The notes beneath the pieces are model-generated. The model was not told the DNA's origin, made no database searches, and saw only the letters and a list, made by a program, of their open reading frames with translations. From an uncultured Candidatus Saccharibacteria bacterium (GTDB lineage: Bacteria > Patescibacteriota > Minisyncoccia > Phycocordibacterales > UBA5272), in assembly GCA_964348515.1 (NCBI GenBank), contig CAYGDA010000002.1:12752-76751 (forward strand): DNA of 64,000 bases. Direction: 5' to 3'. The first letter of the stretch is position 1; every line of letters begins with the position of its first letter. Positions 56,632-57,243 of the stretch are shown here, in pieces. The translations under genes were made by a program, and so were the position numbers.

Positions 56632-56703
56632 TTGCGGGAGTTGGATTTGAACCAACGACCTTCAGGTTATGAGCCTGACGAGCTACCGCTGCTCCATCCC
56701 GCT
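56632..56703 (-). tRNA. Initiator tRNA-fMet(CAU)
   Basis: Reverse complement: AGCGGGA-TG-GAGC-AGCGGTA-GCTC-G-TCAGG-CTCATAA-CCTGA-AGGTC-GTTGG-TTCAAAT-CCAAC-TCCCGC-A-A. A1/A72 are unpaired and the overall sequence is very close to bacterial tRNA-fMet. Confidence 0.8.
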
Positions 56704-56780
56704 ATGTGTGAACATTAAACTGCGTTGAACTTTACGAGCTTGGTTCATAACCTTGGTTATTCGCGCCGTAAGTCCTTTCG

Positions 56781-56805
56781 GAGCTACCGCTGCTCCATCC
56801 CGCTA
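56781..56805 (-). repeat. Exact 25-nt duplicate of the 5' segment of tRNA-fMet
   Basis: gagctaccgctgctccatcccgcta occurs at 56680-56704 (inside the gene) and again at 56781-56805. Confidence 0.85.
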
Positions 56806-56950
56806 CACTTAAACACTATTTTTCTATCTAAAAAAGCCCCAAACGAGCTTGCAACCATAGTACCTATATTATGGAAAAAATCAAGCCCAAAAGACGGGTT
56901 TGTCTAGAAAATATAGCGTATTATGTTATAATCGCCGTGTTTAAAAATAA

Positions 56951-57026
56951 GCCAATGTAGCTCAGTTGGTAGAGCACATCCATGGTAAGGATGAGGTCAC
57001 CGGTTCGATCCCGGTCGTTGGCTCCA
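56951..57026 (+). tRNA. tRNA-Thr(GGU)
   Basis: GCCAATG-TA-GCTC-AGTTGGTA-GAGC-A-CATCC-ATGGTAA-GGATG-AGGTC-ACCGG-TTCGATC-CCGGT-CGTTGGC-T-CCA. Confidence 0.85.
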
Positions 57027-57046
57027 GGGCAAAGTGCCCCATAAAA

Positions 57047-57066
57047 GCCGGAGTAGCTCAGTTGGC
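57047..57066 (+). repeat. Exact 20-nt copy of the 5' end of tRNA-Thr(CGU)
   Basis: gccggagtagctcagttggc is identical to 57121-57140. It is followed by a 54-nt spacer containing a ggtcatt/aatgacc hairpin. Confidence 0.85.
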
Positions 57067-57120
57067 GGGTCATTTCATTCAGCAGAATGACCTACTGGGT
57101 CGCTCGCGTGTCCTGTTGGA

Positions 57121-57196
57121 GCCGGAGTAGCTCAGTTGGCAGAGCATCTCACTCGTAACGAGAAGGTCGCCAGTTCGATTCTGGCCTCCGGCTCCA
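57121..57196 (+). tRNA. tRNA-Thr(CGU)
   Basis: GCCGGAG-TA-GCTC-AGTTGGCA-GAGC-A-TCTCA-CTCGTAA-CGAGA-AGGTC-GCCAG-TTCGATT-CTGGC-CTCCGGC-T-CCA. Confidence 0.85.
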
Positions 57197-57203
57197 ACAG
57201 GAT

Positions 57204-57243
57204 AACGAGAATGTCGCCAGTTCGATTCTGGCCTCTGGCTCCA
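57204..57243 (+). repeat. 40-nt near-exact (38/40) copy of the 3' part of tRNA-Thr(CGU)
   Basis: aacgagaaTgtcgccagttcgattctggcctcTggctcca compared with tRNA nt 37-76 at 57157-57196. It begins 7 nt after the complete gene. Confidence 0.85.

Follow-up and report, generated by a model that had tools for sequence, protein, structure and literature searches.

Partial tRNA gene copies in a Patescibacteria tRNA cluster, possible scars of insertion or replacement at tRNA genes

The stretch of DNA analysed here, called the window, covers 64,000 nucleotides (nt) of contig CAYGDA010000002.1 (positions 12,752 to 76,751 of the forward strand; assembly GCA_964348515.1) from an uncultured Candidatus Saccharibacteria bacterium of the Patescibacteriota. 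It carries nine tRNA genes, five of which form a cluster on which ARAGORN and Rfam are in agreement. Three partial copies of tRNA genes lie within this cluster: one of the 5' end of the initiator-type tRNA-Met gene, one of the 5' end of the tRNA-Thr(CGU) gene and one of the 3' end of the latter (Table 1). Contigs from other samples span the locus at 99.4-100% identity. Those used most below are L001 and L007 (independent contigs, k=141) from sample ERZ27247837 and L008 from sample ERZ27247828.

Table 1. Features of the tRNA cluster, in window positions
Feature	Position	Strand	Basis or detail
tRNA-Asp	56333-56407	-	ARAGORN and Rfam
tRNA-Met	56443-56518	-	ARAGORN and Rfam
Initiator-type tRNA-Met, intact	56631-56703	-	ARAGORN; Rfam tRNA, 65 bits
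Spacer between initiator 5' copy and gene, 76 nt	56705-56780	-	holds -10-like TTTAAT 10 nt upstream of the tRNA
Initiator 5' copy, nt 1-24 and one upstream base	56781-56805	-	25/25 versus 56680-56704
Terminator-like hairpin and T-run, immediately upstream of the initiator 5' copy	56834-56850	-	consensus scan
Sigma-70-like promoter (TAGAAA, 16-nt spacer, TATAAT)	56905-56932	+	10/12 consensus and upstream TG
tRNA-Thr(GGU), intact	56951-57026	+	ARAGORN and Rfam
17-nt core TGGTAAGGATGAGGTCA, anticodon to variable loop, nt 33-49	56983-56999	+	three-way alignment
tRNA-Thr(CGU) 5' copy, one upstream base and nt 1-20	57046-57066	+	21/21 versus 57120-57140; gap 54 nt
The same with its degraded in-register continuation to nt 34 (anticodon loop)	57046-57080	+	
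Hairpin GGTCATT...AATGACC in the spacer between 5' copy and gene	57067-57092	+	sequence and predicted fold
Left arm of perfect 17-bp inverted repeat: 10-nt leader and acceptor 5' strand	57111-57127	+	
tRNA-Thr(CGU), intact, CCA encoded	57121-57196	+	ARAGORN and Rfam
Right arm of 17-bp inverted repeat: acceptor 3' strand, TCCA and 6-nt trailer ACAGGA	57186-57202	+	
tRNA-Thr(CGU) 3' copy, nt 36-76 including CCA, 41 nt	57203-57243	+	39/41 versus 57156-57196

All three copies are terminal parts of their tRNA and lie on the gene's own strand, the 5' pieces upstream and the 3' piece downstream. A preliminary description of the locus had reported them, and its account of the 5' copies holds: 24 nt of the initiator gene plus one base recur without mismatch after a gap of 76 nt, and the copy of the first 20 nt of tRNA-Thr(CGU), 54 nt from its gene, is exact over 21 nt once the upstream base at 57046 is included. 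The 3' copy has the CCA and the two mismatches described (G46T and C69T), but it starts at nt 36 instead of nt 37 and the gap to the gene is 6 nt instead of 7 nt. Exact 21- or 25-mer repeats this close have a chance expectation of ~1e-6 or lower per 64 kb. The edges of identity coincide with tRNA ends (5' end or CCA), which is the pattern that juxtaposition of two diverged alleles of one conserved gene would produce. Identities between the flanks of copy and gene are at chance level for all three (8/30, 5/30 and 12/30), and the surroundings of the tRNA-Thr(CGU) 3' copy are unrelated to those of its gene both downstream (5/30) and upstream (6/30). A simple tandem duplication, whose decay had been proposed as one origin, is rejected on these grounds because duplication of a whole unit would repeat the flanks too.

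A 16-mer scan allowing one mismatch detected no partial copy at the other seven tRNAs of the window. The copies, found at only two of the nine genes, are therefore not a leader or promoter motif common to tRNA genes, as might have been suspected; in line with this, none of 17 other loci carrying the initiator 24-mer has a second copy of it. Rfam reported the five intact tRNAs of the cluster only, with no match to the fragments even at E<=10. The copies recur in L001 and L007, that is, in contigs from another sample, which excludes an artefact of a single assembly.

The two tRNA-Thr(CGU) copies are identical in L001 and in the window. Beyond its perfect part, the 5' copy continues in fixed register to nt 34 with 9/14 identities (P ~0.004), while the 3' copy begins at nt 36, so that the outer gene appears split at the anticodon. 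Judged from their sequence, the two pieces look like halves of one older gene between which the working gene lies. They are 122-136 nt apart, enclose an intact tRNA with the same anticodon and leave no coding capacity between them; neither half is a tRNA by Rfam. The 54 nt that follow the 5' copy align weakly and collinearly with nt 21-76 of the tRNA (global z=2.4, p=0.018). The hairpin in this spacer had no match in IMG/VR, and the 3' half of the intact tRNA-Thr(CGU) gene gave no match in GTDB representative genomes (two patterns), JGI metagenomes (one pattern) or IMG/VR (one pattern). With respect to CCA, six of the nine tRNA genes of the window (14697-57196) do not encode it; it is encoded in the genes for tRNA-Ser and both tRNAs-Thr, and it is also present in the tRNA-Thr(CGU) 3' fragment.

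The intact tRNA-Thr(CGU) gene is enclosed by a 17-bp inverted repeat of 100% complementarity, made of its acceptor stem and ten additional Watson-Crick pairs between leader and trailer. This 10-bp extension is unique among the nine tRNAs of the window; the other eight have 0-1 bp. The right arm stops exactly where the 3' copy starts, which points to an origin of the stem in the rearrangement itself. The region 57027-57250 is predicted to fold into a nested cloverleaf-like structure (-103.5 kcal/mol, z=-7.5), in which the two fragments build an outer acceptor stem while a 19-bp stem with one G-U pair carries the inner tRNA. Much of this strength follows from the duplicated tRNA halves, which give such folding automatically. 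A consensus scan found no promoter-like site in the 54 nt before tRNA-Thr(CGU); since a good promoter precedes tRNA-Thr(GGU), the Thr pieces are probably co-transcribed from it. The nested tRNA-Thr(CGU) unit with its unique stem is the sole unusual element of the locus.

In the initiator-type tRNA, A1 and A72 are mismatched, A11 pairs with T24 and the T-loop reads TTCAAAT; Rfam flags the non-canonical 1:72 pair. The 5' copy of this gene ends sharply at the D-stem, the following 15 nt matching the tRNA at only 5/15 positions. Similarity of the 76-nt spacer to the remaining part of the tRNA is not significant (p=0.14-0.17), and the possibility that the fragment is a decayed full-length copy was rejected for this reason. 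The leader of the gene in the window (GTTTAATGTTCACACAT, followed by AGCGGG of the tRNA) resembles that of the same tRNA type in the unrelated contigs L018 and L020 (GTTATAACCGTCACCCAT, likewise followed by AGCGGG). A terminator-like hairpin precedes the copy, and L008 similarly has one ~40 nt upstream of its initiator gene. L007 reproduces the copy with a 2-nt TG insertion inside it, the sole difference from the window in ~8 kb outside tRNA-Thr(GGU). Such an indel between near-identical strains indicates that the fragment is not tightly constrained. The predicted fold of the initiator region is not exceptional (z=-2.1).

Initiator tRNAs of this type occur in other settings. Viral contigs matching the initiator 24-mer were considered as attP sites and rejected, the matches being complete tRNA genes, several of them in phage-type arrays. 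A1-type initiator tRNAs, ~84-88% identical to that of the window, are found in dense arrays of 5-16 tRNA genes (L019, L038, L039, L042, L043 and L044), and some of these arrays hold suppressor-like tRNAs with the anticodons cta and tca, as is the case in large phages that have recoded stops. The same initiator type is interrupted by 23 nt, TCCTTCGACAGGCTCAGGACAGG, immediately 5' of the CAT anticodon in L032 (7583-7679) and L041 (1-75), which come from a GC-rich organism in JGI metagenomes; ARAGORN calls a 97-nt tRNA with its type unassigned, and the insertion may be a small tRNA intron.

Strains related to that of the window differ from it inside tRNA genes of the cluster. L008 has one mismatch in 2.9 kb (99.97% identity) and then diverges abruptly from 56639, within the initiator tRNA. 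Its positions 2900-2975, equivalent to 56631-56703 of the window, hold a different initiator allele that starts with CGCGGGGTAGAGCAG and has the classical C1/A72 mismatch; this allele (CGCGGGG...) comes with a different promoter region and different upstream DNA. In sample ERZ27247837 the neighbouring tRNA-Thr(GGU) gene is interrupted by an insert that can be read from L007 on the left and L001 on the right. L007 tracks the window through tRNA-Thr(GGU) to nt 49 and continues with a different T-arm and acceptor strand, beyond which lie a gene for a 109-amino-acid membrane protein and the beginning of a further tRNA. On the other side, L001 comes in from different DNA with another initiator-like tRNA and a different 5' half of tRNA-Thr(GGU), which diverges from the window up to nt 32 and equals it from nt 33 on. 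Both junctions of the insert thus share the 17-nt core.

In the foreign tRNA-Thr(GGU) halves, stem pairs have changed in a compensatory manner (C50-G64 to T-A and C11-G24 to T-A); these halves therefore come from real tRNA alleles. Among the acceptor stems of this gene, that of the window is best paired, that at the left junction has one additional G-U pair and that at the right junction has three G-U pairs. This fits insertion into a window-type gene with one functional copy kept. No homologue of the insert's membrane protein is encoded in the window. IMG/VR gave no match to four DNA patterns taken from the ends of the insert, and a look-up of a spurious open reading frame (ORF) across the window-type tRNA-Thr(GGU) junction found nothing. 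The locus is a recombination hotspot, as had been surmised, with three strain-level breakpoints inside tRNA genes. In related assemblies, recommended earlier for comparison as a way to find an occupied site, an insert is present in the neighbouring tRNA-Thr(GGU); the tRNA-Thr(CGU) copies of L001 do not differ from those of the window.

Several assemblies have contig ends in or near the cluster: the first base of L002 corresponds to 57283, L001 and L007 break off within tRNAs and L008 stops 80 nt beyond the initiator tRNA. These breaks fit a branching produced by strain variants; metagenome assemblies are interrupted here by partial tRNA copies and by alternative alleles of the initiator tRNA.

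The explanation favoured here, to which we give about an even chance, is that the copies are dead scars of insertion or replacement at tRNA genes, and that subsequent deletions pared the inserted DNA down to the parts that selection retains. DNA with its own tRNA copy, or with only the 5' part of a tRNA and its promoter, would have recombined into the resident gene, most likely from an integrative element that relied on a tyrosine integrase. What was displaced of the resident gene would have remained as a fragment on the expected side. Deletions would then have removed the insert save the complete tRNA-Thr(CGU) gene and the promoter-bearing 76 nt before the initiator gene, and this later loss would explain why only 6-76 nt lie between copy and gene. 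The enzyme, the order of events and the trimming are what we infer. The -10-like leader of the initiator gene, which lies inside the retained spacer, supports the retention of a promoter. The insert in tRNA-Thr(GGU), with its shared core and the acceptor pairing at its junctions, is the outcome expected of integration into a window-type gene. The preliminary description had spoken of footprints of excised elements, which is mechanistically off: precise excision leaves a single tRNA and no duplicate, and the duplicates therefore require either that the insert was deleted or that it had been small from the start.

Fragments of tRNA genes arise most commonly when mobile elements integrate into such genes (PMC9897764). 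Under the rules of Islander these are end fragments in the same orientation as the gene, 5' ones upstream or 3' ones downstream (PMC4383910), and the three copies of the window are all terminal, in direct orientation and on the expected side of the intact gene. The tRNA-Thr(CGU) 3' copy in addition spans the classic identity block of integrases from the anticodon loop to CCA, in keeping with the earlier view of it as an integration-type scar. The 5' copies, called unusual, do belong to a minority class, but one less exotic than was implied, as Islander lists 159 islands with 5' fragments versus 3760 with 3' fragments (PMC4383910). The conspecific strain with an insert flanked by a shared core in the neighbouring tRNA is a further likeness to islands. 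In contrast, the gaps of 6, 54 and 76 nt compare with a required 2-200 kb, and no integrase gene lies between fragments and genes of the window; with integrase and length both wanting, the copies are filed as scars and not as an island. Regarding the crossover sublocations known from Islander (anticodon loop and T-loop/acceptor junction), the start of the 3' copy at nt 36 and the tRNA-Thr(GGU) core agree with them, whereas the end of the initiator copy at nt 24 is off-site and the tRNA-Thr(CGU) 5' copy would agree only if the degraded sequence up to nt 34 truly belongs to it.

There are phages that split the tRNA gene of their host, do not restore it and supply a complete cognate tRNA themselves (PMC10865867). 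This tRNA-dependent lysogeny of actinobacteriophages, e.g. Fionnbharth (PMC10865867), resembles the arrangement of tRNA-Thr(CGU), which appears split in the anticodon region with a complete cognate inside. It differs from it in that the window has no phage genes, the 'insert' of ~122-136 nt is essentially a tRNA alone, the host belongs to the Patescibacteria, and an integrase, a short common core and arm sites are not demonstrable. Taken together, the copies are probably a known kind of genomic scar, displaced tRNA-gene fragments, with no new mechanism or system.

Several observations weigh against such an origin by insertion. No integrase, phage or plasmid gene was detected by Pfam from ~23 kb upstream to 7 kb downstream of the cluster, nor did a Pfam scan find an integrase or element gene next to the other tRNAs of the window. 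Pfam scans together with precomputed Pfam calls for identical genes of the strain contigs gave no integrase at ~34-64 kb of the window, the first 34 kb lying mostly outside the scan. The readable ~600 nt of the strain-specific insert contain no integrase or element either, and the sole gene visible there codes for an ordinary Patescibacteria membrane protein of variable context. IMG/VR patterns disclosed no viral contig with a matching att-like sequence; a search of GenBank phages returned similarity at tRNA level only. The two foreign tRNA-Thr(GGU) halves together would have four G-U pairs in the acceptor stem, a poor tRNA, so that a single clean attP is not evident. The 5' copies end at nt 20 in the D-loop and at nt 24 in the D-stem, which are not known crossover sublocations. 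Trimming to 6-76 nt on three occasions would need several deletions, and a degraded nt 21-34 beside a perfect nt 1-20 in the tRNA-Thr(CGU) 5' copy is uneven for neutral decay.

Recombination that involves no integrase is possible, at a distinctly lower probability. After uptake, DNA of diverged strains would have entered the genome by homologous or homology-facilitated illegitimate recombination anchored on the conserved tRNAs, its other end being joined illegitimately. The breakpoints lie at the edges of tRNAs, the only sequences conserved between the diverged genomes, and the replacement of the initiator allele in L008 looks like a plain homologous exchange. The two foreign tRNA-Thr(GGU) halves derive from functional but different alleles, the insert bears an ordinary chromosomal gene and no integrase was seen in the regions scanned. 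A type IV pilus cluster is encoded nearby, and type IV pili are linked to DNA uptake. This explanation does not predict the strict rule of side and orientation in all three copies or the split of the outer tRNA-Thr(CGU) exactly at the anticodon; nor does it predict the 17-nt core at both insert junctions. All of these features are more typical of site-specific recombination.

Local replication errors are rather unlikely as the source of the copies. Partial tandem duplication, slippage or hairpin-primed template switching would have been followed by decay and possibly by gene conversion that preserved identity over short patches. The weak collinear alignment after the tRNA-Thr(CGU) 5' copy would allow a decayed full-length copy abutting the gene, and the one polymorphism of the initiator fragment, an indel of 2 nt within a hairpin, is of the slippage type. 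Quasi-palindrome template switching makes perfect inverted repeats, and the 17-bp repeat is the kind of product it yields; template switching may be the origin of this repeat. Such errors are contradicted by the unrelated flanks at all three copies, by the absence of ACAGGA, which follows the tRNA-Thr(CGU) gene, after the 3' copy, and by a spacer beside the initiator copy without significant tRNA similarity. They also leave the strain-level replacements at neighbouring tRNAs unexplained.

It is improbable that the fragments function in transcripts, be it as decoy halves, as leader elements for folding or processing of the adjacent tRNA, or as parts of one designed nested RNA made up of the outer halves, the inner tRNA and the long stem. 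The predicted nested fold of the Thr transcript (z=-7.5), the leader/trailer extension confined to tRNA-Thr(CGU) and the perfect conservation of the first 20-25 nt of both 5' copies speak for a function. A strong fold is, however, to be expected from duplicated tRNA halves alone, and a near-identical strain has an indel within the initiator fragment. No copy exists at the 17 other initiator loci of the same type or at other tRNAs of the window, the initiator-region fold is unexceptional and no Rfam family matches. Leader/trailer processing stems such as those around rRNAs, like quasi-palindrome template-switch products, resemble the helix of tRNA-Thr(CGU). As in the rRNA case, the sequences directly adjoining both ends of the mature RNA form a predicted perfect 17-bp helix (19 bp with one G-U pair), which coaxially extends a stem, that of the tRNA acceptor; it differs in being present at one of nine window tRNAs only. 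Still less probable is a specific variant in which 57111-57202 (92 nt), with tRNA-Thr(CGU) between the arms of the perfect 17-bp inverted repeat, would constitute a self-contained cassette that entered the anticodon loop of its resident homologue and replaced it in function. A purpose-built processing or insulating stem would let the inner tRNA fold and be released from a transcript with decoy halves, and at the initiator gene the 5' end would have given way to a comparable module with a promoter.

Assembly artefacts, meaning collapsed or chimeric joins at tRNA repeats, are very unlikely: contigs from several assemblies do end in or near the locus and the window-type tRNA-Thr(GGU) junction is attested by the window alone, but the fragment arrangements recur in independent k=141 contigs of another sample, the repeats are much shorter than k, and, of the three versions of the gene, that of the window has the best pairing in the acceptor stem, which makes a chimera across the 17-nt overlap unlikely.

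The cluster is flanked by ligA, gatCA, prfB, ftsEX, pyrG, a gene for an HD hydrolase and a type IV pilus cluster. The best named matches of the window proteins are to Moranbacteria and Paceibacterota at ~64% identity; gene content and matches together assign the window to the Patescibacteria. The pilus cluster (38837-50376), just upstream of ligA-gatCA and the tRNA cluster, codes for PilM, two T2SSE ATPases, one T2SSF platform protein and several small ORFs; the counterpart in L007 of one ORF at ~49.2-49.8 kb has a weak Pfam match to the N-methyl (prepilin-type) motif. The segment 24001-28000 has a G+C content of 0.34-0.39 versus ~0.46 elsewhere and may be acquired DNA. Its products are aldehyde-dehydrogenase-like, GTP-cyclohydrolase-II-like, nucleotidyltransferase-like and peptidase S51 proteins. 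A stand-alone GIY-YIG nuclease-domain ORF of 88 amino acids (61669-61935) is found between ftsX and pyrG.

The repeats had been described as bordering the segment that codes for the lmo0937-family (DUF5670) peptide and the FN3 protein, which does not hold, there being no copy on the far side of these genes. The FN3 protein has 161 amino acids, versus 185-270 in most homologues. The gene pair (57257-57879) is kept in L030 (4001-4718), from a distant Patescibacteria relative, at 50% identity and without adjoining tRNA genes. The nearest named relatives, identified from homologues of the HD protein (64% identity) and of FN3 (50-57% identity), have no tRNA cluster beside these genes, and a relative at 83% identity is represented by a 731-nt contig only. 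A gap of ~310 nt without convincing gene (57880-58191) separates the FN3 and HD hydrolase genes. Contigs of ERZ27247837 also break there, L001 ending at 58299 and L003 starting at 58159, which suggests a further strain-variable junction.

The locus provides a clean small example of such scars and a pointer to a polymorphic insert. If their origin by insertion or replacement at tRNA genes is correct, the events leave minimal scars without an attached element, which would escape island finders that demand an integrase and an insert of at least 2 kb. tRNA genes would then be crossover points for strain-level change of gene content even in the very small, streamlined genomes of Patescibacteria.

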